A stretch of 20,000 nucleotides of DNA from an uncultured virus (IMG/VR IMGVR_UViG_3300028805_000071) (lineage: Duplodnaviria > Heunggongvirae > Uroviricota > Caudoviricetes). Below are positions 771-19,770 of the stretch, one piece after another. The stretch lies in the IMG/VR virus record IMGVR_UViG_3300028805_000071. The stretch is one strand, 5' to 3'. A program made the translations under genes and the position numbers. The notes beneath the pieces are model-generated. The model made no database searches. It worked only from the letters and a program-made list of their open reading frames with translations, and had not been told where the DNA came from. Numbering within the stretch: position 1 is the stretch's first letter; each line of letters starts with the position of its first letter.

Positions 771-781
771 AAATCGCCCTC

Positions 782-2401: not shown

Positions 2402-2414
2402 TTAACCTCCTCAT

Positions 2415-2777: not shown

Positions 2778-2786
2778 TTCATCCCC

Positions 2787-5750: not shown

Positions 5751-5775
5751 ATTTTCGCTCCTTTCTTTTTTTTAT

Positions 5776-5802
5776 AAAAAAAGAGGTTTTTCACCTCTTT
5801 TT
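5776..5802 (-). terminator. Bidirectional intrinsic terminator-like hairpin
   Basis: AAAAAGAGGT-TTTTC-ACCTCTTTTT with T runs on both strands, between the 353-aa and 411-aa genes. Confidence 0.55.
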
Positions 5803-5821
5803 CTATATATTTTGGCTTTTT

Positions 5822-6883
5822 TTATATGTTTATTGATGTTTTTTGTCCATTTCTGCAATTTTTACAAATAGAATAAAATCCGTCTTTACTTGTATTGTTT
5901 TTACTGAAGTAACGTGAGTGCGCCAATTTCACTTTACCGCAACGACTGCAGCGTTTATATTTGCCTTTTTCTTTAAAAGTATAATACCAATTAAGAAAAT
6001 ATTCTTGCGATAAGTCTGAAATTAAATTAGGAATTTTCTTGCGCCATAATGAAGAAATATATTCTAAGGAGTGGGTTGTTCCAAATTCTTCGTCTAAAAC
6101 TTCTTGAATGGCTTGATTAGAGAGTCCATCAATTTTTAATTCAGTAATACGTAAAAGTAAAGGATGCGATTGAAGAGCGGCCCAAGAAATTGTATCAAAA
6201 TCTTGCATGATACACCATAAATCACTTGTGGGGTGTTCTCACGCATTTTGCTTTAAATTAGAATAATTGCATAAGATACCAGAGCAACATCTAGGGTCAC
6301 ATAAACTAATCCCGCTCCAGCGCACGGTCCCATCGGCTTCAACCCATTCTTCACTTTCCAGCTTTACTGTGCTGGGAAGGGAGTAGTGAATTGAATGGGC
6401 ATGAATTAAATACTCGCTTTTAATTTGATATTGTTGTTTACGAAAGTCAATTAATGCTTTCTTGGCGAGATACTTATTACGACCGGTCGCAGTTGCAGAA
6501 ATCTTTTTCCATGCTTCAATGGCTTCTTGCACCTCCCGCATTCCCGGGAGGGTATCAATATCATGCTGTGTAATTTTTTGTTTTGGTTGGAAAAGGATGT
6601 GCTTATTATCATTTTTAATTGCATAAATACCATCTTCGCCATTCTCGAATTTATCAGCTAATGCTTGATAAGATGTTTCGCGTTTGTTGATGGTTACCAT
6701 GCGGTTTTCTGTCAGGATTTTTTTCTGTTTGCGTTCTTCCTTTTCCATGCAGAAAATTAGATAGTCAGCTAACACTTCAAGGTCATCATTAGTAAGGTCA
6801 GGATTCTCAGCGACAATTTGTTCTACATACTCCTTGCGCGCTAAAGAACTTTCTAATGTGTAATCCAATTTTACTGTTATCAT
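5822..6883 (-). CDS. 353-aa putative DNA-binding regulator (C-terminal HTH-like segment plus CxxC..CxxC finger; TGA 6239-6241 = Trp)
   Basis: ORFs 6239..6883 and 5822..6208 are in frame with bridge NYSNLKQNA*EHPTSDLWCIMQDFD. GGAGG RBS at 6891-6895. Contains ELKIDGLSNQAIQEVL...EYISSLW (HTH-like) and CSRC...CKNC. Confidence 0.7.
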
Positions 6884-6903
6884 TCAACTACCTCCATAGT
6901 AGC

Positions 6904-6932
6904 ATTATAGCAAAAAATATTATGTAAAGCAA
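6904..6932 (-). promoter_or_regulatory. Sigma-A-type promoter, leftward
   Basis: TTGCTT-17 bp-TATAAT with extended TG on the minus strand, just upstream of the 353-aa gene. Confidence 0.7.
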
Positions 6933-6939
6933 AAAAATA

Positions 6940-6968
6940 TTGACAAAATTATAAAAATTTGATATAAT
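6940..6968 (+). promoter_or_regulatory. Consensus sigma-A promoter, rightward
   Basis: TTGACA(6940)-17 bp-TATAAT(6963) with extended TG. Confidence 0.85.
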
Positions 6969-7005
6969 TTATATATAAAAAATATATTGGGATAAAAATA
7001 AAATT

Positions 7006-7209
7006 ATGGAATTAATATCAAAAGAAGAATTAATTAAAGAATTAAAAGGCTCGGTATTAATGATGAGAGATATTCCCACCTGGCCGCCCACATATGAAGA
7101 TACTAATATTTTTCATATTATAGATAAAATACCAGTTATTGAAGTAGATGAAGATGTAATGCCTCCCTGCGCATGGGGCGACAGTTGTGCATACTACACT
7201 TCAGAGTAA
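7006..7209 (+). CDS. Hypothetical protein, paralog family A (N-terminal part only)
   Basis: MELISKEELI...IDKIPVIE resembles the genes at 7447, 10554 and 10940. Confidence 0.7.
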   Translation: MELISKEELIKELKGSVLMMRDIPTWPPTYEDTNIFHIIDKIPVIEVDEDVMPPCAWGDSCAYYTSE

Positions 7210-7221
7210 GGAGATAGGTAA

Positions 7222-7434
7222 ATGGCAAAACTTAAATTTGATATACAAGAAAGTTCGCCACTTATTAAATTTGGCGCACTACAAGAAGGTGAAATATTTT
7301 TGTATCATAATGCACCTTTTATAAAAGCAAACGATAATCACGTACCTAATTTAGTTAATGGCTGTTGGACGTTAATTGATGATGATGAACTTGTTACTTA
7401 CGTCAAATCTGCTGAATTAAAATTAACGATATAA
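7222..7434 (+). CDS. Hypothetical protein (70 aa)
   Basis: RBS-like AGGAGATAGG; tiles in the operon. Confidence 0.7.
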   Translation: MAKLKFDIQESSPLIKFGALQEGEIFLYHNAPFIKANDNHVPNLVNGCWTLIDDDELVTYVKSAELKLTI

Positions 7435-7446
7435 TAAGAGGAAAAA

Positions 7447-7710
7447 ATGGATTTAATATCAAAAGCTGAGGCAATTAGCGCAATAGATAATATGAGAGCG
7501 CAGCCGGACGAAGATGGATATTTATTAATTTATAAAATGGATGCAGTAGATAATATTAGATGTTTACCAGTACAAGAACCTAAACGAGGCTATTGGATAG
7601 TCGATAAAGATAATATTGGATGTTCAGAATGTGATACGTGGTATATATCAAAGTACATGACGCACAGGAACTTTTGTCCTAATTGCGGAGTATTAATGGA
7701 GGAAGAATAA
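7447..7710 (+). CDS. Zinc-ribbon protein, paralog family A
   Basis: MDLISKAEAI...LPVQEPKRGYW...CSEC...FCPNCG; GAGG RBS. Confidence 0.8.
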   Translation: MDLISKAEAISAIDNMRAQPDEDGYLLIYKMDAVDNIRCLPVQEPKRGYWIVDKDNIGCSECDTWYISKYMTHRNFCPNCGVLMEEE

Positions 7711-7711
7711 T

Positions 7712-7918
7712 ATGGAAGTAGCAATAAAACCTTGTCCTTATTGCGACGATGCTTGGGTATATGCTTCTGTTGGAGATTATGGAAGTGGATATGAAAGTTA
7801 TGGCTATCGAATGCAGTGCAGATGTGGGTTTGCTTGGAAAACTATCAACTGGCATGATAACAAAGATGAGGCGATAAAGGAATGGAATGCGGAGGTGTCT
7901 AATGATAGCAATTCCTAA
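7712..7918 (+). CDS. Lar-like (restriction alleviation family) zinc-finger protein
   Basis: IKPCPYC...CRCG...EAIKEWN resembles the Lar-family pattern KPCPFCG...CxxCG...A...WN; GGAGG RBS. Confidence 0.6.
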   Translation: MEVAIKPCPYCDDAWVYASVGDYGSGYESYGYRMQCRCGFAWKTINWHDNKDEAIKEWNAEVSNDSNS

Positions 7919-8201
7919 TATAGATAAGCCGCAGCGTTGTCAAGAATGCCCGGCACATACATTTAACTATGGATATATTCCAGGTGACAATGGTTGTCGC
8001 ATTTTGAAACGTGCATTCAATATAGATAAGTTAGATATAAACCCTTTTAATGAAGTTCTTCCCGATTGCCCGTTAATCGACATTGTAGAATGTTGGGAAT
8101 GCGAATATTATAGGGGCCATGAAGAATATTGTGATATAGACCAGTTTGCAAGAGAACATGGTTTTTGCTATAGCGGAAAAAGGAGAAACAATGGCGTATA
8201 A
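7902..8201 (+). CDS. Cys-rich hypothetical protein (99 aa)
   Basis: GGAGG then ATG at 7902; MIAIPNIDKP..CQECP...CPL..IVECWECEY...C...FC. Confidence 0.75.
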   Translation: MIAIPNIDKPQRCQECPAHTFNYGYIPGDNGCRILKRAFNIDKLDINPFNEVLPDCPLIDIVECWECEYYRGHEEYCDIDQFAREHGFCYSGKRRNNGV

Positions 8202-8376
8202 ACAATTATGTGACATTTGTGGGCAGGAAATCCACGAGGTGTATTTCGACCCAAGGAAATTCAAGTACAAGCGAAGAATATTCGGCACTTATGAAACGGT
8301 GGACATCTGTCAAGAATGTGCAGAAGAAATGGAGAAATACATTAGAGAAAGGAAAAAGAATGGCGCAACTGATTAA
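8191..8376 (+). CDS. CDIC..CxxC zinc-finger protein, paralog family C (61 aa)
   Basis: AGGAG RBS before ATG 8191; CDICG...DICQECAEE, similar to the gene at 10327. Confidence 0.75.
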   Translation: MAYKQLCDICGQEIHEVYFDPRKFKYKRRIFGTYETVDICQECAEEMEKYIRERKKNGATD

Positions 8377-8869
8377 AGCACCGAGCCAAGAAGAGCCTAA
8401 ATACATTTCTGTATTTTTAGCAGGAGGTATCACTAACTGTAAGAATTGGCAGAAAGAAGTCGAGAAATATCTCTCTAATATAAAAAAGATTTCTGTTATT
8501 AACCCACGGAACGATAAATTTGATGTTACAAATGAACAAGCATCAAAGAATCAGATACAGTGGGAGTTTGACCGATTGGAAAAGGCAGACATATTTAGTA
8601 TGTACTTTTGCAATAGTGACTCGGTTCAGCCCATATGTCTTTATGAACTTGGAAGAAATATAGTCCGTATGCAGCAGAGATTCCCAAACGATTGGGAGGA
8701 CAGAATAATTATAAGCGTAGAAAACGGATACTCAAGAGAGTTCGACGTGATTATGCAGACAAAGTTGTGCGCATCAAGGCTATTAGTATTTACAAATGCT
8801 AGTCCTTATTCTCACGCAGTAAAAATAGATGAGAAAGTAACAAAGATAAGGAGCAACGATGATATATAA
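8360..8869 (+). CDS. Nucleoside 2-deoxyribosyltransferase-like protein (169 aa)
   Basis: VFLAGGIT..WQ...INPR...QIQWE..LEKAD...YF...QPICLYELG motif set; AAGGA RBS before ATG 8360. Confidence 0.75.
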   Translation: MAQLIKAPSQEEPKYISVFLAGGITNCKNWQKEVEKYLSNIKKISVINPRNDKFDVTNEQASKNQIQWEFDRLEKADIFSMYFCNSDSVQPICLYELGRNIVRMQQRFPNDWEDRIIISVENGYSREFDVIMQTKLCASRLLVFTNASPYSHAVKIDEKVTKIRSNDDI

Positions 8870-9137
8870 GAAATACCAGGCAAACCACGAAGAAGAGAAA
8901 ATAGAAACAGACGGGTGTAATGGATGTAAATATATTTTTGTACAGACCTGGGAAGAACCATGCAGACGATGTAAGCGTACCGCAAAGGACTTATATGAAA
9001 GGGCAAGTAATGAGATAAAACAAACGATAGAGGTATCTATTGAATCACTCAATGCTGATAGAGAAACAAATCGTAAAATATTAGACGATATTAAATCAGG
9101 CAAAGGATTACCGCCGATAAAAATGGAGGGAAGATAA
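8859..9137 (+). CDS. Hypothetical protein with CxxC..CxxC (92 aa)
   Basis: AGGAG RBS; overlaps its neighbours in operon fashion. Confidence 0.7.
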   Translation: MIYKKYQANHEEEKIETDGCNGCKYIFVQTWEEPCRRCKRTAKDLYERASNEIKQTIEVSIESLNADRETNRKILDDIKSGKGLPPIKMEGR

Positions 9138-9415
9138 TGAGCTTAATACTTGAAGGCATAGACCTGCCGAAAGGCGAGACAGCAGAAGTAATAATTCGCA
9201 TTCAGCCGAATGGAGATATAAAAGATGGGCACGGAATATTATTAACAGAAACAAAAGCCACGCAGATATCCACCCCACACGGAAGGTTAATAGATGGCGG
9301 CAAACTTGACAAACTTGTTCATGAATGGAGTCCCGTCTATACATATGGAAGAAGTGCATTTACCAGAGCGATAGAAAATGCACCCACGATATTAAAAGCA
9401 GAAGGAGAATGGTGA
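9137..9415 (+). CDS. Hypothetical protein, paralog family B
   Basis: MSLILEGIDLPK...HGRLID...IENAPTILKAE; ends in TGA overlapping the next ATG (TGATG). Confidence 0.8.
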   Translation: MSLILEGIDLPKGETAEVIIRIQPNGDIKDGHGILLTETKATQISTPHGRLIDGGKLDKLVHEWSPVYTYGRSAFTRAIENAPTILKAEGEW

Positions 9416-9702
9416 TGTCGTTTATAGTAAAGGGCATTGATTTACCAAAGGATAATAATAGTTTAGACATTCATATTTTTAATGGAAAAGTGGAAGTAGT
9501 ACATCCGTTAGACGCTTGTGAATTAGCGCATATTAATGGCGAAGCTATCCAGATTCCTAAAGGCCATGGAGATATTAAAGATGTTAGTAAATTGCGCGTT
9601 AGCGAATATGATTGCGAGGGAGAGGTTAGTTGGTACACTATAAGGGCAGTGGATACGTGGGATATTGAGAATGCTCCAACGATATTAGAAAGTGAGAAAT
9701 AA
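9415..9702 (+). CDS. Hypothetical protein, paralog family B
   Basis: MSFIVKGIDLPK...IQIPKGHGDIKD...IENAPTILESE. Confidence 0.8.
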   Translation: MSFIVKGIDLPKDNNSLDIHIFNGKVEVVHPLDACELAHINGEAIQIPKGHGDIKDVSKLRVSEYDCEGEVSWYTIRAVDTWDIENAPTILESEK

Positions 9703-9703
9703 G

Positions 9704-9997
9704 ATGCAAATAGTAATAGATATACCTAATAGTGATATTACATCAAAACAAAATATTATAAATCTTGATTTGCATTTTATTGATGGACATATTTGCGAAT
9801 GCACCTATCCGTTTAAAGAACTACCCAAAGAACATGGAAAGCTGATAGACGCAGATGAAACAAGAAAGCAATATTACCAATGGATGGAAGAGTTATTACA
9901 ATCAACAACCATTAATATGTCCGCAGAGGCGTTGAGTTTATTATGCGGATTCACTTTAATAAATAATGCCCCGGCAGTATTAGAAGCAGAGGAGTAA
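9704..9997 (+). CDS. Hypothetical protein, paralog family B
   Basis: MQIVIDIP...LPKEHGKLIDAD...INNAPAVLEAEE. Confidence 0.8.
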   Translation: MQIVIDIPNSDITSKQNIINLDLHFIDGHICECTYPFKELPKEHGKLIDADETRKQYYQWMEELLQSTTINMSAEALSLLCGFTLINNAPAVLEAEE

Positions 9998-9998
9998 A

Positions 9999-10325
9999 AT
10001 GAGTTTAGTAATAAAAGGAATTAATAAACCAAAGGAAGGCGAAATGGTCGTTATAGGAATACAAGCGACAGACGCAGTTATTGATACTTGGGAAACCAGC
10101 GAAATAGATGGAGAAGACGTATTTGTAAAACGAGAACATATTAAACACGCTGATATTATTCAAATTCCAGAGGAGCATGGAGATATTAAAGATATCAATA
10201 CTTTTGTAAAAGATAAAAGTATATACGAATGCATTGAAAATGATGTATTTAACAAGAAATATACTTATTTGGTTGGTGTAGGTGCTATATATAATGCGCC
10301 AACGATTTTAGAAGCGGAGGAGTAA
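9999..10325 (+). CDS. Hypothetical protein, paralog family B
   Basis: MSLVIKGINKPK...IQIPEEHGDIKD...YNAPTILEAEE. Confidence 0.8.
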   Translation: MSLVIKGINKPKEGEMVVIGIQATDAVIDTWETSEIDGEDVFVKREHIKHADIIQIPEEHGDIKDINTFVKDKSIYECIENDVFNKKYTYLVGVGAIYNAPTILEAEE

Positions 10326-10326
10326 T

Positions 10327-10554
10327 ATGGAAGTAACATGTTGTGACATTTGCCGCAAACCTTTAACTCGTAAAGGATATAAAGACCAAGACGGCAAGGA
10401 TTGGAGAGATATAAGTTTTAGAGAACGCAAATATAGTACAAGGATATTCTCATTTGTAAAAAGCGCATTTGATACCGAATATATATCCGTGTGCGGATAT
10501 TGTCGTTCAGAATTAGCAAAACATAATCCTAGGGAAGGACTAAAGGGAGAATAA
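10327..10554 (+). CDS. Zinc-finger protein, paralog family C
   Basis: CCDICRK...SVCGYCRSEL; GGAGG RBS. Confidence 0.75.
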   Translation: MEVTCCDICRKPLTRKGYKDQDGKDWRDISFRERKYSTRIFSFVKSAFDTEYISVCGYCRSELAKHNPREGLKGE

Positions 10555-10850
10555 TGATAGGATTAATATCCAGAGATGAAGCAATTAAACAAATAGACGA
10601 AGCGTTTGACGTTGGTGGATGTTATTGTGATAAATATGCAATCCGAGGCATATTAAGAAGCCTTCCCACTATAGAAGAACGCAAAGAGGGGAGATGGGTA
10701 AGAATCACTCAAGACGTGGGTGTAGGACCTCATCTATATAAGTGTAGTGAATGTCATAGAGTTATTGAATATAGTAGTTCCGAACTCCCCTGCTTGTTGG
10801 AGATGAAGTTTCCTTACTGTCATTGCGGAGCAAAGATGAGAGGAGAATAA
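10554..10850 (+). CDS. Zinc-ribbon protein, paralog family A
   Basis: MIGLISRDEAI...LPTIEERKEGRW...CSEC...YCHCGAKM. Confidence 0.8.
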   Translation: MIGLISRDEAIKQIDEAFDVGGCYCDKYAIRGILRSLPTIEERKEGRWVRITQDVGVGPHLYKCSECHRVIEYSSSELPCLLEMKFPYCHCGAKMRGE

Positions 10851-10851
10851 T

Positions 10852-10926
10852 ATGGGAGACAAGTTTTATAAATATTTCTTTTATATTATAGGGGTAATGG
10901 CAATCTTGAAATTTATATTAGGATAG
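10852..10926 (+). CDS. 24-aa single-helix membrane peptide
   Basis: AGGAG RBS; MGDKFYKYFFYIIGVMAILKFILG fills the gap between two genes. Confidence 0.55.
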   Translation: MGDKFYKYFFYIIGVMAILKFILG

Positions 10927-10939
10927 ATAGGAGAATAAT

Positions 10940-11212
10940 ATGGAATTAATATCAAGACAAGACGTAAAGGACACGATTAAACGCAAACCCTTTTCTTTGA
11001 TTGATGAACGAATACTAATGAATACCATTGATTCTATCCCCACTGTAGAAGAACGGAAAGAAAGTGAATGGATAATCCTTAAAGAACCTACCGGGGGACT
11101 ACCGAAAAGATGGCGAGTTAAATGTCCGATTTGTCGTAAAACATTAAGAATAAGAGATAAAGAATTATGGGAGTTTTGTCCTTGTTGTGGAACAAGGATG
11201 GGGAAAAAATAA
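10940..11212 (+). CDS. Zinc-ribbon protein, paralog family A
   Basis: MELISRQDV...IPTVEERKESEW...CPIC...FCPCCGTRM. Confidence 0.8.
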   Translation: MELISRQDVKDTIKRKPFSLIDERILMNTIDSIPTVEERKESEWIILKEPTGGLPKRWRVKCPICRKTLRIRDKELWEFCPCCGTRMGKK

Positions 11213-11213
11213 A

Positions 11214-11462
11214 ATGAAAACAATAGAACAAGTACGTGAAGAAACAAAATTAGGCGATGTATTTATAGGCGAAGTATTTACTTTAGAAGAATTTATGGAA
11301 GAGGTAGACCGTGGCAGCATCACCGAATACGACGGCATTGGCTATTTCCATGATGGGGAAAAAGAAACTGCTATTAGCGTGTTTTCTCCTATATGGTTTA
11401 AATACAACAGCGTCGATGAAGTTATAGAACAATTTCCATATGTAATTTGGTATAATAAATAG
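11214..11462 (+). CDS. Hypothetical protein (82 aa)
   Basis: ATG 1 nt after the previous stop; tiles in the operon. Confidence 0.7.
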   Translation: MKTIEQVREETKLGDVFIGEVFTLEEFMEEVDRGSITEYDGIGYFHDGEKETAISVFSPIWFKYNSVDEVIEQFPYVIWYNK

Positions 11463-11471
11463 GAGAATGAT

Positions 11472-11666
11472 ATGATAGAAATTTCAGAATGGGAATTAGC
11501 AAGACTTCGAGAGCATGACAAAAGTTATTATGAATTAAAACAAGAAAAGGAAGATTTATGTTCTGCATTAGCTCCTATATTTAAACAACTGATTGAAAAC
11601 TTAGATGATGAAACTTTATATAAGTTAAAAACAGATATGGGCCAGGCGTGTCTATATTATGACTGA
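11472..11666 (+). CDS. Hypothetical protein (64 aa; TGA stop in frame with the next gene)
   Basis: AGGAG RBS; ends in TGA at 11664-11666. Confidence 0.7.
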   Translation: MIEISEWELARLREHDKSYYELKQEKEDLCSALAPIFKQLIENLDDETLYKLKTDMGQACLYYD

Positions 11667-11690
11667 ACAAAAGTAGATAAGGAAAATAAT

Positions 11691-11882
11691 ATGGTAAAAG
11701 CAAATGACGTAGAAATTTATATAAAATGGTATGGTTCTAATGGGTTTGGCGAATACAATATTTGGACAGACACAGAGGGCCGCATTAAAGGCGATTCTGA
11801 GTATATGGACAAAGGCGACAAAAAAGATTTTTTGAAAAGTTTATTTGACTCTATTTTAGAGCAGATTGAGATAGTTGGATAA
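11691..11882 (+). CDS. Hypothetical protein (63 aa)
   Basis: AAGGA RBS; tiles in the operon. Confidence 0.65.
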   Translation: MVKANDVEIYIKWYGSNGFGEYNIWTDTEGRIKGDSEYMDKGDKKDFLKSLFDSILEQIEIVG

Positions 11883-12103
11883 TGGGAATAATAGACGATA
11901 TAAATAAATTGCACCAGGTTGGATTACAGAATGGAGTGGAATATAAGACGTTAAGAATTAATAGGGAATTATTGGATAAACTTGAAGCGGAGATAAATGG
12001 GTTCGTGCAGCCGGCGACGCTAGATAATTCGATAGCGACGTTGTTCGGTATGAAAATAGAGCCAGTAGAGGACTCAGACTATTGTTATATATTGGAGGAT
12101 TAG
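11882..12103 (+). CDS. Hypothetical protein (73 aa)
   Basis: TAATG overlap with the previous gene. Confidence 0.7.
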   Translation: MGIIDDINKLHQVGLQNGVEYKTLRINRELLDKLEAEINGFVQPATLDNSIATLFGMKIEPVEDSDYCYILED

Positions 12104-12104
12104 T

Positions 12105-12248
12105 ATGGGGATAGCGTTTTTGATGGCGGTAGGGTTTGCGGCTTTCTTCGTGCTGGGGTATACTCTGGGCCATATGGCAGGGTTTAACCACGGCCATGAG
12201 GCAGGTATCGAGGAAGAACGCGACAGGTATTGCCGGATGGGGCCTTGA
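12105..12248 (+). CDS. 47-aa membrane protein
   Basis: GGAGG RBS; MGIAFLMAVGFAAFFVLGYTLGHMAGFNHGHEAGIEEERDRYCRMGP; TGA stop lies inside the next -35 box. Confidence 0.65.
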   Translation: MGIAFLMAVGFAAFFVLGYTLGHMAGFNHGHEAGIEEERDRYCRMGP

Positions 12249-12273
12249 CAAAATTAAAAATAAATGTTATAAT
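12245..12273 (+). promoter_or_regulatory. Consensus sigma-A promoter
   Basis: TTGACA-17-TATAAT with extended TG. Confidence 0.85.
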
Positions 12274-12302
12274 TTATATATAAAGTGAAAGGAAAAAAAT
12301 AA

Positions 12303-12506
12303 ATGGATAACGGAGCAACAGTAGGAAAAATGTTCTATAGAGGCCAAGAGTACGAGGCTCATCTGGACGCAGAAGGAAACTTATTGGTGCCGTCATTCTT
12401 TAAAGATGGCTCTGAGTTAATTGTGTATTATGTGAAGGTGCCGGTGGAGCTCCTGGAGACCATATATACAATGACCAAGCAGAGATATGAACTTGAAAAT
12501 TTATAA
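12303..12506 (+). CDS. Hypothetical protein (67 aa)
   Basis: Own promoter and AAAGGA RBS. Confidence 0.7.
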   Translation: MDNGATVGKMFYRGQEYEAHLDAEGNLLVPSFFKDGSELIVYYVKVPVELLETIYTMTKQRYELENL

Positions 12507-12521: not shown

Positions 12522-12609
12522 ATTAATATAAAGAAGAGAAAATTTAAATATAAAAAAACCAAACTCTTTACCTTTCTTACACTCTCTTCTTCCCAGTTGC
12601 TGGGAGTTG

Positions 12610-12640
12610 GGCGGGGCCGCAGGCTCCGCCTTTTTGTTTT
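12610..12640 (+). terminator. Intrinsic terminator
   Basis: GGCGGGGCC-GCA-GGCTCCGCC hairpin followed by TTTTTGTTTT. Confidence 0.75.
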
Positions 12641-12677: not shown

Positions 12678-12691
12678 CGAACACGCGTTCT
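12678..12691. promoter_or_regulatory. Firmicute-type LexA (SOS) box
   Basis: CGAAC-ACGC-GTTCT versus consensus CGAAC-N4-GTTCG. Confidence 0.55.
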
Positions 12692-12789: not shown

Positions 12790-13990
12790 AAACAAACAAA
12801 CAAGCTAATGACACACAGGACATTAAACAAAATAAATTTTGTTAAAAGATAAGATTAAATACCAAAAGCAAACATAAATCAATTGTTTAAATAAATAAAT
12901 AACAATCAATACAATACTATAATGCATAGTCATCCACTACTGCTGCTCTACCCATGGCATGGCACAGTATACCAATAGTAGATGACACACAACACACTAC
13001 TGAGAGCTTGGCGCTGGGGCGGTCACCGTTGACGAGCGTGAAAAGTGCTGATTCGCGCAAGGAGAAGCTTTGCAGAAAAAATCGCACAACAACACAACAA
13101 ATGTAATACAATCATTTATCCTAAAACTCTAATACACCACGACAGTAGGGGCAATGCATGCACACACAGACAGAGGGGCAGCCAGGCTGGCCAGCCACAG
13201 CCAACGAGCAAACAACGAACATACAAAGAACAATAGATTAACACACAAGCAACACACAACACACAACACACACATAATGATATAATAATATATATAATAT
13301 ATATACATACACATAGGTATAGGGATGCCATGGGGTAGGGGTAGGGGGCGTGGTGTGGTAGGCACACAGTATAGTAACACAATAAGATAGATAATAAACA
13401 TATAATATAATACACAAACAGTAAACAGTATTCTATCTATTGGTTTCAGTATGGGTATGAGATATGTGGTAATGTAGTAATAATACCTAGACACGTAAGC
13501 TGTAGTGTATAGCTACACAGTACACAAGCAGGACACAACGTGTAACACAAAGGGTGAGACACACATAGATACATACACATACACACACAACAACAGACAC
13601 ACAGACAATCAACAACACAAGCAACACATACACAACAACAGATAGATAGATACACAACATACAATAATACATACACACAAAGAGATAGATAAGAACAAGA
13701 CAATAGACAACACAAGCAATCAACCAACAGACAAAGAGAAGATAGAATAAAAGATAAAAGAAAATAAATAGAAATAAGATTTGTTATTGTGTTTTAGTTT
13801 CAGGTACAGTGTATGGTATAGGTAGTATACCAAGGGGTAGTCTGCAGGTCTACTGGACAGGGTAGGTGCAGTGGGGCATAGACCTAATGGCCAACAGAGA
13901 GACAGAGAGAGAAAGAAGATAAAGAGATAATAAAGTATTAACAACAACACAAAGAATAATAATTGATATTTATATATGATATATTGCATG
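12790..13990. repeat. Strand-skewed low-complexity non-coding tract (CA/ACA/AGAT runs)
   Basis: e.g. ACACACAACACACAACACACACAT and ACACATAGATACATACACATACACACACAACAACAGACAC. Only C/V/Y-rich spurious ORFs; no RBS-led genes seen. Confidence 0.8.
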
Positions 13991-14265
13991 GCTGTGGGGC
14001 TGGGCCTGCCCCCGCGCCGCCCCCGGCCATGGCGGCGCGAGTTTTCGCTGTATACAGCCCGTGCATAAAATTTAACGCTTCACCGCGGTAAAGTGGTAAC
14101 GCGGTGAACTCCTGAAATTCAGCACTTTAACGCGGTGAAGTGCGAAAGACTTTAGCGCGGTGAAGCGTTAACGCAGTAAAGCAAATTTTTGTTTTTTGCG
14201 ATAAAAAGCAAAAATTTTACTTTTTCCGCCATGCTTTAGTGAGTTAAAGCGTTGAAGTCCGTCGC

Positions 14266-14283
14266 TTGTTAAAAATTTAACAA
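14266..14283. promoter_or_regulatory. Rex operator (clostridial type)
   Basis: Perfect TTGTTAA-AAAT-TTAACAA. Confidence 0.65.
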
Positions 14284-14400
14284 TGTTATAAGTATGCAAA
14301 AAAATGTATAAAAAAACTTTTAAAAAAAGTATTGACAAATTGCTAAAGGTATGATAATATATAATTACAAAAGGGAGAGAAAACAAAGAGAGGTAACAAG

Positions 14401-14649
14401 ATGTATACAGTAACAAATGACGCAAAGGCAAAGACAATCAACGAAAACACAAAGTATGTTGCAATCGCACCGCTTCTTGAAACTGTTATAAATATGTCAA
14501 AGGACAAGGCTCCTTACACAGTGCTTACTGTTGGAGCAACACTCGAAGAGGTTGAGATGTTCGCTTCTTCCGATTGGATGATGGCTCACGCAATCGTTGA
14601 TGGTTGGTGGACAATCGTAACAATCGATGAAATAACAATCAATAACTAA
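14401..14649 (+). CDS. Early hypothetical protein (82 aa)
   Basis: Own promoter, GAGAGGT RBS, terminator directly after. Confidence 0.8.
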   Translation: MYTVTNDAKAKTINENTKYVAIAPLLETVINMSKDKAPYTVLTVGATLEEVEMFASSDWMMAHAIVDGWWTIVTIDEITINN

Positions 14650-14670
14650 AAAAGGCGAAAGCCTTTTTTT
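14648..14670. terminator. Bidirectional intrinsic terminator
   Basis: AAAAAAGGC-GAAA-GCCTTTTTTT. Confidence 0.8.
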
Positions 14671-14683
14671 ATTTGCGTCGTGG

Positions 14684-14697
14684 CGAACATACGTTCG
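14684..14697. promoter_or_regulatory. Perfect Firmicute LexA box
   Basis: CGAAC-ATAC-GTTCG. Confidence 0.75.
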
Positions 14698-14745
14698 GTT
14701 AGTCACCGCTAACCAATAGGCACATTCCCCTCTTCCATCATCCTC

Positions 14746-14774
14746 ATTATAACATAAAACCGCAAGGCTGTCAA
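14746..14774 (-). promoter_or_regulatory. Consensus antisense sigma-A promoter
   Basis: TTGACA-17-TATAAT with extended TG on the minus strand. Confidence 0.8.
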
Positions 14775-14867
14775 TAGAAAAAATAAAAAAAATTTTTTTA
14801 AAAAAGTATTGACAAACCCTCTTCAGTGTGCTATCATTATTATAGAAAGAAGAGAGGAGAACAAACA

Positions 14868-15299
14868 ATGAGAATTTGGTTAGACATGGACGGAACAATC
14901 GCAGACCTTTACGGAGTAGAAAACTGGCTCCCTATGTTAGAAGCAGAAGACCCTACACCTTACGCAATCGCAAGACCGCTTGTGAGAATGAACATTCTCG
15001 CAAGATTGTTAAATAAGGCACAGAGAAACGGCTATGAAATTTGCATCGTGTCCGCACTCTCAAAGAACGGCTCCGCAGAGTATGGGCAGAAAGTAATCAA
15101 CGCAAAGTTAACTTGGTTACAGACCCACCTCGCAAGCGTAAAGTTTGACGAAATCCAGTTCGTATCTTACACCTACACAAAGAACAATGTAAATAGTGGA
15201 AATGATATTCTTTTCGATGATGAAGAGAGACACCTCACCGCTTGGACGGGTGAAGCCTACAACGCAAGAAACATTTTAGAGGTTTTAAGAAACCTCTAA
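14868..15299 (+). CDS. HAD-superfamily phosphatase, 5'(3')-deoxyribonucleotidase-like (143 aa)
   Basis: IWLDMDGTIAD (motif I), IVS (II), K..WL (III), ILFDD (IV); GAGGAG RBS. Confidence 0.8.
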   Translation: MRIWLDMDGTIADLYGVENWLPMLEAEDPTPYAIARPLVRMNILARLLNKAQRNGYEICIVSALSKNGSAEYGQKVINAKLTWLQTHLASVKFDEIQFVSYTYTKNNVNSGNDILFDDEERHLTAWTGEAYNARNILEVLRNL

Positions 15300-15379
15300 T
15301 TTTTTTTATAAAAAAGGCTTGACAGAACACCAAAAGGATGATATAATAAAGGTACAGAAAACGAAAGGAGACCAAAGCA

Positions 15380-15553
15380 ATGAAGGAAGTTATAGGAATT
15401 GTAATCTTAAGTTTAATCGTTTTATTGGTAGTCGCCTCAATCGCATTTTTACTGTGGTTTGGCGTTTCATGGGCTTCGATAATGTTTCAAAATCTCGACA
15501 TGGACGAGCCCACGGTATTAAGTTCGTGGAATCTATTTTCATTCATTGGATAG
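15380..15553 (+). CDS. 57-aa membrane protein
   Basis: Promoter 15319, AAGGAG RBS, MKEVIGIVILSLIVLLVVASIAFLLWFGVSW...; terminator follows. Confidence 0.75.
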   Translation: MKEVIGIVILSLIVLLVVASIAFLLWFGVSWASIMFQNLDMDEPTVLSSWNLFSFIG

Positions 15554-15554
15554 G

Positions 15555-15580
15555 AAAGAGGGCAAAGCCCTCTTTTTTCT
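15555..15580 (+). terminator. Intrinsic terminator
   Basis: AAAGAGGGC-AAA-GCCCTCTTTTTT. Confidence 0.8.
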
Positions 15581-15813
15581 GTTGTCGGTCAACTATTCCG
15601 AAAATTAATTTTTAGGGAATAGTTGGGCTTTTGGGCTTTTGGCAAGGGTTTTTTCTGTCAAGGAACTATTCCCAAAATTAGTTTTTAAGGAATAGTTGAC
15701 CGACCCCAATTCACTTTAGCGAATTAAAGCGTGAAAGAAAAAATTTTTAAAAAAGGGCTTGACAAACAAGCCTTTTTCTGTTATACTATAATCAGAAAGA
15801 GAGGTAAAGACAA

Positions 15814-15984
15814 ATGACTACATTCGCACTTAACATTTTAATCATAACAGTAATACTTTTAATGGGTTTCGCCATTGGAATGATAATTATTGAACTAATC
15901 AAAACCGCAAAGTTTCGCAAAGAGGTAAAAGCCACAAACGAGGCTTTAAAAGATTACGCAGAACATTGTTTGAAAAAATTTTAA
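15814..15984 (+). CDS. 56-aa membrane protein
   Basis: Promoter 15759, GAGAGGT RBS, MTTFALNILIITVILLMGFAIGMIIIELIK... Confidence 0.75.
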   Translation: MTTFALNILIITVILLMGFAIGMIIIELIKTAKFRKEVKATNEALKDYAEHCLKKF

Positions 15985-16055
15985 AAAAAGGGGTTGACAA
16001 ACCCTTTTTTTCATGCTATAATAAACTCAAGAAAAGACAAAGAGAGGTAAACAAA

Positions 16056-16196
16056 ATGAAGTATTACACAGTACAGTGGTTCGACAAAGAACTTGGAGAA
16101 ATCTACAACACAATCACAAGCGAAAAGGGAGTTGCTTACATGCAGAAGCACCCCGAAGTGTATGACATTCTTCTGTTAGATATTTACACCGAATAA
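16056..16196 (+). CDS. 46-aa hypothetical protein
   Basis: Promoter 15994, GAGAGGT RBS, MKYYTVQWFDKELGE... Confidence 0.75.
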   Translation: MKYYTVQWFDKELGEIYNTITSEKGVAYMQKHPEVYDILLLDIYTE

Positions 16197-16261
16197 AAAA
16201 AAGGGGTTGACATTCAACCCCTTTTCTGTTATAATAAAGACAGAAAGAGAGGTAAAGACAA

Positions 16262-16459
16262 ATGACAATCCACAATATTGATAACACATTCTATGACTCA
16301 GAAATGAGCGTAAAAGAACTTATTGAATACTTAAAAGAAAACTATGACGAAAATAATAGGGTCACTTGGTTTATGCAAAAGACTCTTCCAAACAGAGATT
16401 TTCATAGAATTTACATTGATTCAGATGATTATTACATTGAAAAAGAAGAAGAGAGGTAA
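16262..16459 (+). CDS. 65-aa hypothetical protein
   Basis: Promoter 16207, GAGAGGT RBS; internal MSVKELIEYL resembles the start of the 16682 gene. Confidence 0.75.
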   Translation: MTIHNIDNTFYDSEMSVKELIEYLKENYDENNRVTWFMQKTLPNRDFHRIYIDSDDYYIEKEEER

Positions 16460-16464
16460 ATAAA

Positions 16465-16623
16465 ATGACAATTTACGGACTTAATAAGAAAGCAACAAAA
16501 GGCTTATACATCGTATACACAATAACTGAAGGAAGAAAGTATTTCTTGAGTGCTTGGAGAACAGAAGAAGACGCAAACAAAAGAGCAAAAAAATATTTTG
16601 GAAAAGTTTGGAAAAACTGTTGA
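16465..16623 (+). CDS. 52-aa basic hypothetical protein
   Basis: GAGAGGT RBS; MTIYGLNKKATKGLYIVYT...; TGA stop inside the next TTGACA. Confidence 0.7.
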   Translation: MTIYGLNKKATKGLYIVYTITEGRKYFLSAWRTEEDANKRAKKYFGKVWKNC

Positions 16624-16681
16624 CAAACCCCCAAAAGAGTGATATAATAAAGGTACAAAGAGAGAAAGAGAGGAAATAAAA

Positions 16682-16867
16682 ATGACAGTAAAGGAATTAA
16701 TCACAAGACTTGAAGCAGTAGAAAATAAAGATTTGGATGTAGTCATCAATAGCGATGATTACGGCAATGTAGTTGTTACCTATGTCTCGGAAATAGAAGT
16801 ATACTACGGAAGAGATGAGGACACGGGTTGGTACTGTGATACAAGAGAATGTGTTTTACTCGAATAA
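16682..16867 (+). CDS. 61-aa acidic hypothetical protein (MTVKELI type)
   Basis: Promoter 16620, GAGAGG RBS. Confidence 0.75.
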   Translation: MTVKELITRLEAVENKDLDVVINSDDYGNVVVTYVSEIEVYYGRDEDTGWYCDTRECVLLE

Positions 16868-16944
16868 AAAATTTTAAAAAGGGCTTGACAGAGCCCTTTT
16901 TCTATGATATAATAAAGATAAGAAAAGAGAAAGGAAAGAAAAAA

Positions 16945-17112
16945 ATGTTTATACTTGGAATTTTAGTAGGATGGTTTATAGTTTATTTAGGAGCAACAAT
17001 TTGTTGCAACGCTTTTGATAAGGAAGAGTGGATGTCCTATTGGGTTGTTGGCCCGTTTCTCCCTCTTCATTTAGGAATCGGCTATATATATAATAAGTTA
17101 AGAAAAAAATAA
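16945..17112 (+). CDS. 55-aa membrane protein
   Basis: Promoter 16885, AAAGGA RBS, MFILGILVGWFIVYLGA... Confidence 0.75.
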   Translation: MFILGILVGWFIVYLGATICCNAFDKEEWMSYWVVGPFLPLHLGIGYIYNKLRKK

Positions 17113-17182
17113 AAAAAGGGTTGACAAACCAACAGAAAGATGTTATAATAAACTCAAGAAAAGAGAAAGAGAGGAAAAAACA

Positions 17183-17320
17183 ATGGACGAAAAAGCAAAA
17201 AGACTTGCAGACATTATGTTTGAAGAAGATGAATACAGAGACGCTAATGATATGGAACTGATGTATCACACAAAAGAAGATTTTGAAGCAGAGAAAAGAG
17301 AAAGAGAGGTAAAGAAATGA
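17183..17320 (+). CDS. 45-aa charged hypothetical protein
   Basis: Promoter 17121, GAGAGG RBS; MDEKAKRLADIMFEEDEY...; ATGA overlap with the next gene. Confidence 0.7.
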   Translation: MDEKAKRLADIMFEEDEYRDANDMELMYHTKEDFEAEKREREVKK

Positions 17321-17511
17321 ATCCCAAGAACTTATTTGTAGGCAAGGCGACCGAAGCCATAAACGAAATCGATGAAATGAACAACGAGTGCGTTGAAGAG
17401 TATGGCGACAAGTATGCGGATTGTTTCCCCGCATTAGCCACCAAGAGGGTAGAAATTGACGGCAAGACCTACAGAATGAAAATCGAAATCACCCTCACCG
17501 AAATAAAGTAA
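17317..17511 (+). CDS. 64-aa hypothetical protein
   Basis: GAGAGGT RBS; terminator downstream. Confidence 0.75.
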   Translation: MNPKNLFVGKATEAINEIDEMNNECVEEYGDKYADCFPALATKRVEIDGKTYRMKIEITLTEIK

Positions 17512-17543
17512 AAATTACATTTTGACTGTATTTGTTTTCATTT

Positions 17544-17577
17544 GCCCCCTCAAGCGAGGGGGCTCCTTTCTATTTTT
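17544..17577 (+). terminator. Intrinsic terminator
   Basis: GCCCCCTC-AAGC-GAGGGGGC followed by a T-rich tail. Confidence 0.65.
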
Positions 17578-17817
17578 ATACATTTGGATGTATAAATATT
17601 TATGCATGCGTGTGCATATTCATTCGTGCTTTCACACGGTGAAGTGTGAAAGCAAATTTTTATTTTTTGCGATAAAACGCAAAATTTTGCCAATCCCATC
17701 AGCCGCGCGCCAGTGGCCCAGGCGAGCGGAGTTTGATTTTTTTGGGGCTTTGGCAAAATTTTACCCTAAAGCGACAGAAAGCGAAAATTTGCTTTAATTC
17801 ACTAAAGTGCTGAAGTG

Positions 17818-17843
17818 TTAGCACTCGCACCCAAGAGTGCTAA
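17818..17843. promoter_or_regulatory. CIRCE-like HrcA operator (8-bp spacer variant)
   Basis: TTAGCACTC-N8-GAGTGCTAA: perfect arms, spacer 1 bp shorter than the canonical N9. Confidence 0.6.
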
Positions 17844-17951
17844 TAACAAAAAATTTTTTTCGTAAATTTTTAAAAAGTGCTTGCATTTGGGTCTGTGATG
17901 TGGTAATATACTTATAGAGGGGAACGCAAATAATAGAGAGGAGAAAAGACA

Positions 17952-18074
17952 ATGACATACGAAGAAATCAAGGCTTACATCAACAACAAAATCGCCAATG
18001 GCGAACCGCTTCACGGATATGCGAGGGAACTCGCTATCGAGTTGGCTCTCAATGAAAAAGAGAGAGCCAACTAA
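17952..18074 (+). CDS. 40-aa hypothetical protein
   Basis: Promoter 17881, GAGGAG RBS; MTYEEIKAYINNKIANGEPLHGYARELAIELALNEKERAN. Confidence 0.7.
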   Translation: MTYEEIKAYINNKIANGEPLHGYARELAIELALNEKERAN

Positions 18075-18174
18075 AAAAGAGAAAAAAAATTCTCTTTTTT
18101 TTAAAAAAGTACTTGCAATCTGCTTTGTAATGTGGTAATATAATATCGGGGGGAACAAGAGAGGAGAAAATAAA

Positions 18175-18579
18175 ATGACTTACTACTTCGATATGGACGG
18201 CGTACTCGCTAACTTCCACAAGGCATATAAAGAAAACAAGGCAGTTGCACTCGACAAGGACGCAATGGCAAACCTCGAACCTTTTGAAGAGAATGTGGCT
18301 CTCGTAAATAACCTCATCTCTACTGGAATCAAGGTTTACATCCTCACCAAAGCCGCCAACGAAGATGGCAAGGCTGGAAAAATCGAGTGGCTTGCAAAGT
18401 ACATCCCCGCTCTTGACCTTGAAAACTTCATTTGCATCGTAGGGGCTGGCAAGAAAATCGACTACATCAGAGAGGATGGAATCCTCGTTGATGACGATAT
18501 GAAGAACCTCACCCCTTGGGCAAAGGCTGGCTTCGGCACCTACTTCGTAGAGGAGAAGGGTGCGGTCATCACCTTCTAA
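18175..18579 (+). CDS. HAD-superfamily phosphatase, 5'(3')-deoxyribonucleotidase-like (134 aa)
   Basis: YFDMDGVLANF, YILT, GKIEWL..Y, ILVDD...NL..W; GAGGAG RBS. Confidence 0.85.
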   Translation: MTYYFDMDGVLANFHKAYKENKAVALDKDAMANLEPFEENVALVNNLISTGIKVYILTKAANEDGKAGKIEWLAKYIPALDLENFICIVGAGKKIDYIREDGILVDDDMKNLTPWAKAGFGTYFVEEKGAVITF

Positions 18580-18588
18580 GGCAAACCA

Positions 18589-18614
18589 ACGGACGGGCAA
18601 CCGTCCGTATTTTT
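18589..18614 (+). terminator. Intrinsic terminator
   Basis: ACGGACGG-GCAA-CCGTCCGT followed by ATTTTT. Confidence 0.8.
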
Positions 18615-18639
18615 ATTCATGCTGATGTATAAAAATACA
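18606..18639. promoter_or_regulatory. Tandem ARG-box-like pair (ArgR/AhrC)
   Basis: CGTATTTTTATTCA-6 bp-TGTATAAAAATACA. The same 14+6+14 layout recurs at 14285-14318, 17569-17602 and 19664-19697. Confidence 0.55.
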
Positions 18640-18640
18640 G

Positions 18641-18654
18641 CGAACATACGTTCG
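18641..18654. promoter_or_regulatory. Perfect Firmicute LexA box
   Basis: CGAACATACGTTCG, identical to 14684-14697. Confidence 0.75.
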
Positions 18655-18834
18655 GAAAATTTTACATTTGTGCGATAAAATGCAAAATTTTGCCAAAGTC
18701 CAGCTCGCCGCCAGCGGCAGCCGGCGGCGAGATTTTTATTTTTTGCGGGATTGCGGAAAAAATTTGCGTTTTTGCGGAAAAAATGCGAAAAAACGCGATT
18801 TCCCAAAACTTTCACACACTAAAGCGTTAAAGTG

Positions 18835-18861
18835 TTAGCACTCACCCCAATCGGGTGCTAA
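18835..18861. promoter_or_regulatory. CIRCE (HrcA operator)
   Basis: TTAGCACTC-N9-GGGTGCTAA, one mismatch from consensus. Confidence 0.75.
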
Positions 18862-18931
18862 CAGAAAAAAATTTTTTAAAAAATTTTAAAAAAAGTATTG
18901 ACATTTCCAAGAGAGTATGGTAATATATAAT

Positions 18932-19037
18932 TGTTCCAAGGGAGAGAGCGGAAACGAGTACTCCCTCAGGTTTTACAAGGTTAGTCACCGCGGGTTTTGA
19001 CTGCAACACAAACCGAAACGATAGAGTGGCCACTCGA
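18932..19037 (+). ncRNA. Candidate ~105-nt structured small RNA
   Basis: Own promoter (18898-18926), no ATG-led ORF. Stems GGGAG/CTCCC, GGTTT/AAACC enclosing TAGTCA/TGACTG, and the palindrome GAGTGGCCACTC. Confidence 0.5.
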
Positions 19038-19090
19038 AAAATTTTTAAAAAACCCTTGACAGATAGCACCAAGTGTGCTACAATATAAAT

Positions 19091-19305
19091 GTAATGAGGG
19101 ATGCGGGGCAGAACCGCTGGTAGTCTCTTGAGTGAGACGGGTAAGACCTTCGACGACAAAGTCCTCGACCGCACGGAGTCCTGTTGTGCGGGATATAAAT
19201 GTGAACCAAGCCCTTAAGTGTGGCAACCCCTTCAGTAACTGGGTAAGGCGAAGAACCCCCCAAAGTGCTGAGAACGGATGGAATGGGGGACGGCAGGACT
19301 CCGTG
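19091..19305 (+). ncRNA. Structured ncRNA, paralog 1 (family not recognised)
   Basis: Own promoter, GC-rich, no RBS-led ORF, several stems, 16-bp long-range complement 19172-19187/19290-19305, motifs shared with paralog 2. Confidence 0.7.
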
Positions 19306-19371
19306 GAAAAGTTTTTCAAAAAAGTTTTGAAAAACGCTTGACAAATAGCACCGAAGGTGCTATACTATAAT

Positions 19372-19620
19372 CAAGGTAAGGGAAGTGAGAGCCGCGGAAG
19401 CCCCGTTAGGCACAGGTAGCCAAGTAAGCCTCTCCCCGATAAAGTCCTTACCACCGCAAGGGTCTCAGCGTTGCGGTATATAAGTGTGAACCAAAGCCCC
19501 CAGGCGGTTGGAATAGGCAAAGGGGGTACACATCGCTGTAGAGGCACCGCAAAGGCTCCGAGGTAAAGGAGAGAGCGAACGGGACTCGGAGCCGACCCCC
19601 AAAAACTTGGGGGCTTTTTT
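19372..19620 (+). ncRNA. Structured ncRNA, paralog 2 (family not recognised)
   Basis: Own promoter and terminator (CCCCCAA-AAAC-TTGGGGG plus T6, 19596-19620); same stem order and conserved motifs as paralog 1. Confidence 0.7.
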
Positions 19621-19770
19621 ATTTGCCGCCCGGCTTCGGTCACGCTGGGCGGCATTTCGTTTCTGCATATCTATGCAAAAAAATGTATAAAAATTTTTTT
19701 GAGAAACCCCTTGACAAAAAATCCCAAAACTGTTATAATAATTATAGAAAAAAGAGAGGAGACCAAGACA

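Follow-up and report, generated by a model that had tools for sequence, protein, structure and literature searches.

The stretch of DNA analysed here (the window) comprises 20,000 nucleotides (nt) of the uncultured Caudoviricetes virus IMGVR_UViG_3300028805_000071, and this study concerns six intergenic islands between positions 14000 and 19700 that are packed with palindromes resembling the operators of host repressors. Portal- and terminase-like phage proteins are encoded on the minus strand at 1-6900. The segment 14000-20000 is a region of early type; its genes are very small, lie on the plus strand and each have a sigma-A-type promoter of their own, and many of them end in intrinsic terminators. 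Only two products of the early region matched Pfam, both of them NT5C-like (5' deoxynucleotidase) paralogues encoded on the plus strand at 14868-15296 (to 15299; below the curated cut-off) and 18175-18576 (to 18579; above it). Judged from sequence comparison, the island motifs are very probably real docking sites for host proteins, and a reading that combines the regulons of LexA, Rex, HrcA and HisR with a dif-like site is supported, the assignment of ArgR being wrong or unproven.

The nearest record, G001 (61 kb, 36% complete), has 96% of sampled words in common with the window and was used in place of the window's own genome for whole-genome comparisons. A related phage, G002, is 66% complete, and related phage genomes are as large as 182-240 kb. 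No integrase over cut-off was found in five related records, two of which are complete. Sequence of the window is present in runs labelled as sheep, goat and gut metagenomes from several studies, and the window is apparently the early region of a large, virulent phage of gut or rumen Clostridia. Among INPHARED phages the only matches were promoter-sized (60-80 nt), to Staphylococcus and Enterococcus phages. A tRNA scan of the window found none, and an Rfam scan of it returned nothing at gathering score, three matches with E ~0.5 looking like chance.

A sequence-only reading of this DNA had proposed six islands built from reshuffled modules. All of their coordinates were confirmed, and repeat families D5, D8, D9, D11, D13, D17 and D18 account for the reshuffling. 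The islands are positioned between intrinsic terminators and consensus TTGACA-17-TATAAT promoters, with which they form repeated terminator-to-promoter cassettes. The early region contains 35 promoter-like sites versus 20.1 expected and 23 terminator-like sites versus 6.7 expected. About 17 sigma-A-type promoters form a plus-strand series from 14332 to 19739, each driving one small gene or non-coding RNA, and nine early promoters are perfect TTGACA-17-TATAAT sequences with a TG extension. A DNA sequencing run contained many joints between conserved promoter cassettes, which indicates that the genes found behind one and the same cassette differ between related phages.

The LexA, Rex and CIRCE (an inverted repeat that controls the expression of chaperones, the HrcA site) identities proposed earlier were borne out by agreement with published consensus strings. 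The LexA-type sequence CGAACATACGTTCG occurs twice, at 14684-14697 in island 2 and 18641-18654 in island 5, in both cases as a GAAC-N4-GTTC palindrome that fits the Firmicute LexA (Cheo/SOS) box consensus CGAACRNRYGTTYC found in the available part of PMC2248561. A LexA-like variant, CGAACACGCGTTC, lies at 12678-12690, outside 14000-19700 and 47 nt past the terminator at 12609-12631. The Rex palindrome TTGTTAAAAATTTAACAA at 14266-14283 in island 1 is the one exact match in the window to the consensus TTGTTAANNNNTTAACAA, for which, as for the CIRCE consensus, we relied on the portion of PMC8336468 that was accessible. CIRCE is present as TTAGCACTC-N8-GAGTGCTAA at 17818-17843 in island 4 (18/18 arm bases) and as TTAGCACTC-N9-GGGTGCTAA at 18835-18861 in island 5 (17/18 arm bases). 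All 15 host CIRCE sites, found in four of five candidate-clade Clostridia genomes at 2-5 per genome, have a 9-nt spacer; the window carries two sites, with spacers of 8 nt at 17818 and 9 nt at 18835.

These sites are enriched over background. None of 500 Markov-1 simulations of 14000-19700 reached the observed counts, the simulated means being 0.08 for GAAC-N4-GTTC and 0.00 each for CIRCE and Rex. No LexA, CIRCE or Rex pattern was found in window 1-12500, and G001 has the sites nowhere but in the part equal to the window. Sites that match the consensus exactly or nearly so are confined to the early region.

At least three further motifs had been left unassigned, and two of them can now be assigned, one as the HisR operator and one as a dif-like palindrome. 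The module seen most often in the islands is CACTTTA-N6-TAAAGYG with a third half-site after it, and it is the operator of HisR, a histidine repressor of the TrpR family in Firmicutes. According to the accessible text of PMC9413887, the Firmicute HisR consensus is cacTTTAnnnnnnTAAAgtg, histidine stimulates DNA binding, and R. gnavus has three HisR sites, with HisR binding assayed in vitro; the word 'phage' does not occur in the text of that paper available to us. Sites matching at least 11 of the 14 consensus positions number eight in 14000-19700 and one elsewhere in the window; 300 simulations of 14000-19700 gave 0.5 such sites on average and never more than 3. HisR-like sites lie in island 1 at 14076-14095, 14123-14142, 14148-14167 and 14232-14251, the last with the third half-site TTGAAG. 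Island 3 has an operator at 15712-15731 (13/14 consensus match), and island 4 has a HisR-like hairpin site at 17627-17646 and an operator at 17790-17817 that abuts the N8 CIRCE. The island 5 operator (18807-18834) abuts the N9 CIRCE in the same way.

The pattern CACTTTARCNNNNTAAAGNNNTAAAG was used to scan two collections, bacterial genomes and IMG/VR. Some 130 stretches of bacterial genomes contained it, most of them in records whose titles name Clostridia or other Bacillota. A regular-expression search placed a promoter at most 60 nt upstream in 28 of 83 host instances, the site typically lying just downstream of TTGACA…TATAAT. From 80 host loci with flanking sequence, 24 with a long downstream open reading frame (ORF) were picked; their products comprised 12 SBP_bac_3 proteins, six HisZ/HisS-like proteins, one HisG, one Trp_repressor-family protein and four others. 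These neighbours and the promoter-proximal position of the module point to the regulon of HisR. The phage sites share with host operators the 20-bp palindrome cacTTTA-N6-TAAAgtg and the extra direct half-site (PMC9413887, available part), and the third half-site of the window was also seen in the host operators. They differ in number and place. Hosts have one to three sites per genome, just after the promoter of histidine biosynthesis or transport genes (hisZ, hisG, an ABC transporter gene) or of hisR, whereas the eight phage sites lie at least 27 nt upstream of any -35, beside unrelated tiny genes and not promoter-proximal to his genes.

Island 3 contains two copies of a 34-bp palindrome, AACTATTCC-N16-GGAATAGTT, at 15591-15624 and 15664-15697. 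It was found once each in 15 of 301 Clostridia genomes, but the reversed-pattern control gave eight matches in seven genomes, so that the raw count is weak evidence. About 12 of the real matches, as judged by eye, extend into long palindromes, and the arms in the phage are identical to those of genomes G011 and G227. In G205, the only single-contig genome tested, the site is at 2,270,626, exactly at the switch from plus to minus GC skew and beside a Phage_integrase-family gene. A single copy, the skew switch and the integrase-family neighbour together indicate a dif-type site, and on these sequence features the palindrome is most likely of the Xer/dif type. A single-copy chromosomal site at a GC-skew switch next to a tyrosine recombinase gene is also the arrangement of the single-recombinase difSL/XerS system, and the arm TTCCGAAAA presumably resembles difSL. 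The site described here differs in being fully palindromic over 34 bp, and the phage has two tandem copies with no recombinase gene of its own found.

Other motifs of the islands fared differently. ArgR/AhrC boxes had been suggested for TGYAT motifs, and this was not borne out by the host scan. TGYAT-W4-ATRCA gave 15 matches in four of five host genomes, eight loci were fetched, and at none of the five with a nearby ORF was the flanking ORF an arginine gene. Of the four tandem TGYAT-N4-ATNCA-like pairs described before, two strict TGYAT-N4-ATRCA palindromes stand (18626 and 19664) and the rest are looser half-site clusters. Island 1 has an ATGYATA cluster at 14288-14315 and island 4 has TATRCAT/ATGYATA palindromes at 17575-17625. 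Module X (TTTTGCG-N6-CGCAAAA) occurs at 14178-14222, 17649-17690 and 18652-18695 in islands 1, 4 and 5. It had 21 matches in 18 of the 301 Clostridia genomes, the reversed-pattern control was equally frequent, and the host matches look like terminators. Module X, the ATGYATA clusters and the palindrome TAGCAC-N5-GTGCTA of promoters 19056 and 19338 are without host assignment. A motif scan of the window for CodY, cre, CtsR, NrdR, Fur, parS and DnaA boxes found none of them.

Between terminator and promoter, the islands are laid out as follows. Island 1 (13985-14331) contains a GC-rich hairpin and ends at the promoter 14332-14360. Island 2 (14648-14808) begins with a bidirectional terminator (14648-14669), and its LexA box is followed by the hairpin GGTTAGTCACCGCTAACC at 14698-14715, a weaker relative of the palindrome AGTTAGT-N4-ACTAACT that recurs in two viral arrays, L086 and L102. 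A consensus promoter on the minus strand (14774 to 14746) would give a transcript that crosses the LexA box, at about +45, and reaches the bidirectional terminator; it is the one minus-strand consensus promoter that reads across sites in the window. Island 3 (15555-15758) opens with a terminator and is followed by the promoter at 15759. Island 4 (17544-17880) extends from the terminator 17544-17570 to the promoter at 17881 and includes a second GC hairpin with a T run at about 17700-17745 and GCAAAATTTTAC at 17753. Island 5 (18589-18897) likewise extends from a terminator (18589-18608) to a promoter (18898), with TGTATAAAAATACA at 18626, a second GC hairpin with a T run at about 18700-18745 and a run of TTGCG repeats at 18735-18800. 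Island 6 (19596-19710) consists of a terminator (19596-19613), a GC hairpin, the palindrome TGCATATCTATGCA at 19664-19677 and ATGTATAAAAA at 19683, with the promoter at 19711, and has no motif attributed to a host protein.

The geometry had been described as poor for plain repression, and we came to the same result: the assigned sites end 27-244 nt upstream of the next -35, and none overlaps a plus-strand promoter core. The next plus-strand -35 lies 111 nt past the end of the LexA box at 14684 and 244 nt past the end of the one at 18641, and neither box overlaps a regulated promoter. Both CIRCE sites end 36-37 nt upstream of a -35, beyond the UP element; they do not stand between a promoter and a chaperone gene, and what lies downstream of them is a 40-amino-acid ORF and a non-coding RNA.

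RNA contigs listed from three metatranscriptome runs leave islands 1, 4 and 5 uncovered, which as missing cover proves nothing, and X11 has low-depth contigs within island 4. RNA contigs from two studies stop at 17494-17515 and 18580-18582, positions at which a DNA run goes on; this is a weak hint that transcripts end ahead of the islands. Promoters 18898, 19056 and 19338 give transcripts without ORFs. Two of these transcripts are units homologous to each other, each about 230-250 nt long (19092-19318 and 19374-19622, with 76% column identity between them), with the core TGCGGNATATAANTGTGAACCAA and a conserved hairpin (ACCGCA…TGCGG) ahead of it; this core is present in 14 IMG/VR contigs and had no Rfam match. 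RNA contigs of three metatranscriptome runs, which come from two studies, cover 19053-19584, with adapter sequence after 19580 and after 19584. In both non-coding-RNA promoters (19056-19084 and 19338-19366) the TAGCAC-N5-GTGCTA palindrome sits between -35 and -10; its arms resemble those of CIRCE at a different spacing, and it may be an operator for another protein. Outside the islands, 12850-13950 is a segment of about 1.1 kb without convincing ORFs and of strongly skewed composition, between a small-gene block and island 1, and within it A makes up 57% and C 23% of 13560-13760, where ACACAAC-type repeats are numerous. A minus-strand ORF of 120 amino acids at 2415-2777 among the terminase- and portal-like genes may, as a guess, be an inserted homing-endonuclease-type gene.

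The same design was found in other phages. Within 11 kb, G002 has 15 GAAC-N4-GTTC boxes, mostly GAACATATGTTC, and 12 Rex-like boxes (at most one mismatch to TTGTTAANNNNTTAACAA), and HisR boxes are present in most of its islands. Across 11 G002 islands the order is terminator T run, LexA box, GC-rich spacer, HisR operator, Rex box, UP element and promoter; the LexA boxes begin about 8-20 nt past the T run and the Rex boxes lie 28 to 152 nt from the -35. Three minus-strand promoters in G002 islands read across sites, and one island has two NrdR-like boxes 32 bp apart together with a dif-like palindrome. Ten related loci had 7, 0, 1, 1, 0, 5, 6, 0, 4 and 0 copies of CTTTA-N6-TAAAG, and Rex boxes were present in two of the ten. 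One locus (L008) has no HisR or Rex sites, and at its positions 12040-12085 three perfect DnaA boxes and one near-match lie directly upstream of a TTGACA promoter. These uneven counts indicate that the repertoire varies between relatives with the same genes; the content upstream of the orthologous NT5C-like gene likewise differs between relatives.

In IMG/VR the strict HisR pattern occurred at 149 loci in about 111 mutually unrelated contigs (counted by hand); twenty loci of one conserved family that looks unrelated were dropped. Among 118 non-redundant viral loci, G002 excluded, 27 have another host-type site within 350 nt, Rex-like in about 16 and LexA-like in about 10. Rarer companions are a perfect N9 CIRCE (L041), two dif-like sites (L080) and DnaA boxes (L126 and L130). 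Two arrays have no consensus promoter visible inside: L039, which follows a terminator directly, comprises five [Rex+HisR] units, one about every 60 bp, and L102 packs nine HisR sites into about 500 bp, with a CtsR-like direct repeat, GGTCAAAGTCAGTCAAAGTCA, at 241-263. A cluster of CTTTA-N6-TAAAG matches in a further bacterial or phage contig (G173:C6; L357-L359, ~18-51 kb) was rejected as a HisR array, being really a different repeated element, in which CTTTAACAAAGTAAAG with the fixed hairpin AACTTCTGCTCAAATTGAGCAGAAGTT occurs 14 times, following conserved gene ends.

HisR arrays stand near both ends of 17 contigs that are 11.5-14.8 kb long, at a distance of about 10-185 nt. These paired terminal arrays (L029/L030, L034/L035 and 15 further pairs) have at least two HisR operators with extra TAAAG half-sites, no Trp_repressor gene was found in these phages, and the three linear contigs checked have inverted terminal repeats according to their IMG/VR class. 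In a complete phage genome of 13,166 bp the HisR array occupies 47-135, and the first promoter lies about 110 nt downstream of it. The terminal arrays of these linear phages resemble the host-factor sites in adenovirus terminal repeats.

What, then, could the sites do? The reading that we place first, while holding it only tentatively and at less than even confidence, is that their main effect is the capture of host repressors on phage DNA, i.e. that they are decoys. It is drawn from the position of the sites outside promoter cores and in terminator-shielded stretches. The islands carry predicted sites for LexA (SOS), Rex (redox), HrcA (CIRCE, chaperones) and HisR (histidine) and of the Xer/dif type. 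Host proteins would be held there in stretches that terminators shield from transcription. As the phage replicates, its sites would come to outnumber the few host operators, the repressors would be drawn off, and the SOS, chaperone, redox and histidine regulons would be derepressed. Consensus quality of the sites, their multiplicity, the promoter-free arrays elsewhere and the fact that nearly all assigned sites are repressor sites fit this picture. While motif identity, enrichment, conservation, geometry and the lack of detectable phage-encoded homologues are observed, host-protein binding, titration and selection for titration are inferred.

Multicopy titration of operators is the basis of the Fur titration assay (FURTA) and of operator-repressor titration plasmids. 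In the available part of PMC3322331, decoy arrays of transcription-factor sites sequester the factor on multicopy operator DNA and shift target expression. These known systems differ in being synthetic or eukaryotic, and our literature search found no natural phage example of operator decoys.

Several observations weigh against capture as the main effect. All characterised cases of host-factor sites on phage DNA known to us act in cis. The fixed module order of G002, abutting terminator and promoter cassette, looks like a regulatory unit, and the minus-strand promoters across sites (14774 in the window and three in G002) mean that the sites there could be ordinary operators or roadblocks. Titration of HisR would bring little obvious gain, since this repressor needs plentiful histidine in order to bind. 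Autoregulation, which applies to most of these repressors, buffers titration. A repressor operator is not what the dif-like site is, the CIRCE at 17818 has the non-canonical 8-nt spacer, and the phage of the window has few LexA (2-3) and Rex (1) sites. Among the ten related loci, four have no CTTTA-N6-TAAAG site and only two have Rex boxes.

Close behind ranks a reading in which the sites sense host state in cis, which we consider possible at a somewhat lower probability. The bound repressors would be roadblocks or insulators behind terminators, or gates of divergent transcripts or of replication, and would tie the early cassettes to SOS, redox, proteotoxic and amino-acid status, all of these repressors binding in unstressed, well-fed cells. 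The G002 order and the closeness of its LexA boxes to terminators agree with this, as do the predicted transcript from 14774 across the LexA box at 14684 to the bidirectional terminator and its three counterparts in G002. The HisR arrays at both ends of 17 contigs are where protein-primed replication would start, and an action in cis is also favoured by how little would be gained from titrating a repressor whose binding depends on histidine. On the other side, no site touches a plus-strand promoter core, the distances to the -35 vary, the sequence upstream of the NT5C-like gene is not kept between relatives, and promoter control does not readily account for the long promoter-free arrays of L039 and L102.

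Models for sensing in cis are provided by CtrA-dependent 'lytic deferment' and by Spo0A in phi29. The Spo0A boxes of phi29 are said to be phage sites for a host global regulator that couple infection to host state. The same coupling through sites for host global regulators is described for LexA/gp7 in GIL01 and for the CtrA sites of Alphaproteobacteria phages, precedents that act in cis as far as the available parts of PMC4551915 and PMC9437464 go. In each of the phi29, GIL01 and CtrA systems, however, a single regulator is concerned, its sites are in or on promoters or origins, and the function shown or proposed for them is in cis, whereas here at least four regulons and a dif-like site are combined, all outside promoter cores.

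Much less probable is that phage-encoded proteins bind palindromes that only resemble host operators. The precedent is SPbeta, in which, according to the accessible text of PMC10516654, the SPbeta repeated element (SPBRE) is bound by MrpR, a protein of tyrosine-recombinase fold. As in our islands, a conserved intergenic element is repeated as a protein-docking site in a large Firmicute phage, and the dif-like palindrome might bind such a recombinase-fold repressor. The motifs that lack a host assignment would suit a phage binder, and with G001 and G002 being incomplete (36% and 66%) a phage-encoded binder of another fold may exist. SPBRE is, by the same available text (PMC10516654), a single element bound by the own repressor of a temperate phage; the present phages differ in that their motifs are of several host types, no integrase passed the cut-off and no phage protein stands out as a candidate binder. 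Against a phage binder, four unrelated types of site agree with host consensus sequences over their full length, the third HisR half-site included. We found no LexA_DNA_bind, Rex or HrcA domain in five phage records (G001-G005) and no Trp_repressor domain in ten, among them the complete 13,166-bp phage; the records searched, complete ones included, also had no integrase domain over cut-off.

We regard as improbable that the islands serve DNA entry or protection, with abundant host DNA-binding proteins loading on the first-entering DNA to ratchet or shield it. The confinement of the sites to an early region with same-direction sigma-A promoters, and to the termini of small linear phages, would fit, but the sites are sparse, with a few in each kb, the named proteins are regulators of low abundance rather than nucleoid proteins, and which genome end enters first has no supporting evidence.

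Least probable of all, and very unlikely in our judgement, is that the cassettes are mobile recombination scaffolds whose operator-like motifs are passengers without a protein-binding role. In T4-type phages, promoter-early stem-loop (PeSL) cassettes, a terminator stem-loop plus early promoter flanking small variable ORFs, reportedly mediate shuffling (Arbiol et al. 2010), and the repeated terminator and promoter units described here, with many joints between cassettes in the DNA run and the same modules in different orders, are alike. To our knowledge PeSLs do not carry host-operator arrays, and passengers would neither keep consensus quality nor turn up again at the ends of small linear phages and across ~110 unrelated contigs.

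Phage proteins and auxiliary metabolic genes are the usual explanation of how phages take over their hosts. Here it is non-coding DNA that carries predicted sites for at least four host regulons, and the design recurs in many uncultured gut and rumen phages, small linear ones among them. A wider proposal, which we consider doubtful but worth stating, is that gut Firmicute phages widely use protein-free 'operator sponges' for HisR, Rex, LexA, HrcA and others. Arrays on early-entering, transcription-shielded DNA would strip repressors off the chromosome as copy number rises, and amino-acid, energy, chaperone and repair regulons would be switched on. If repressor capture is true, it would be a new, cheap mode of host reprogramming and would add a new class of non-coding feature to annotate. 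If the sites act in cis, they would make up a multi-input sensor of host physiology in an apparently virulent phage. Under either reading the sites may offer a sequence-based handle on host prediction, since operator dialects and dif arms are lineage-specific.

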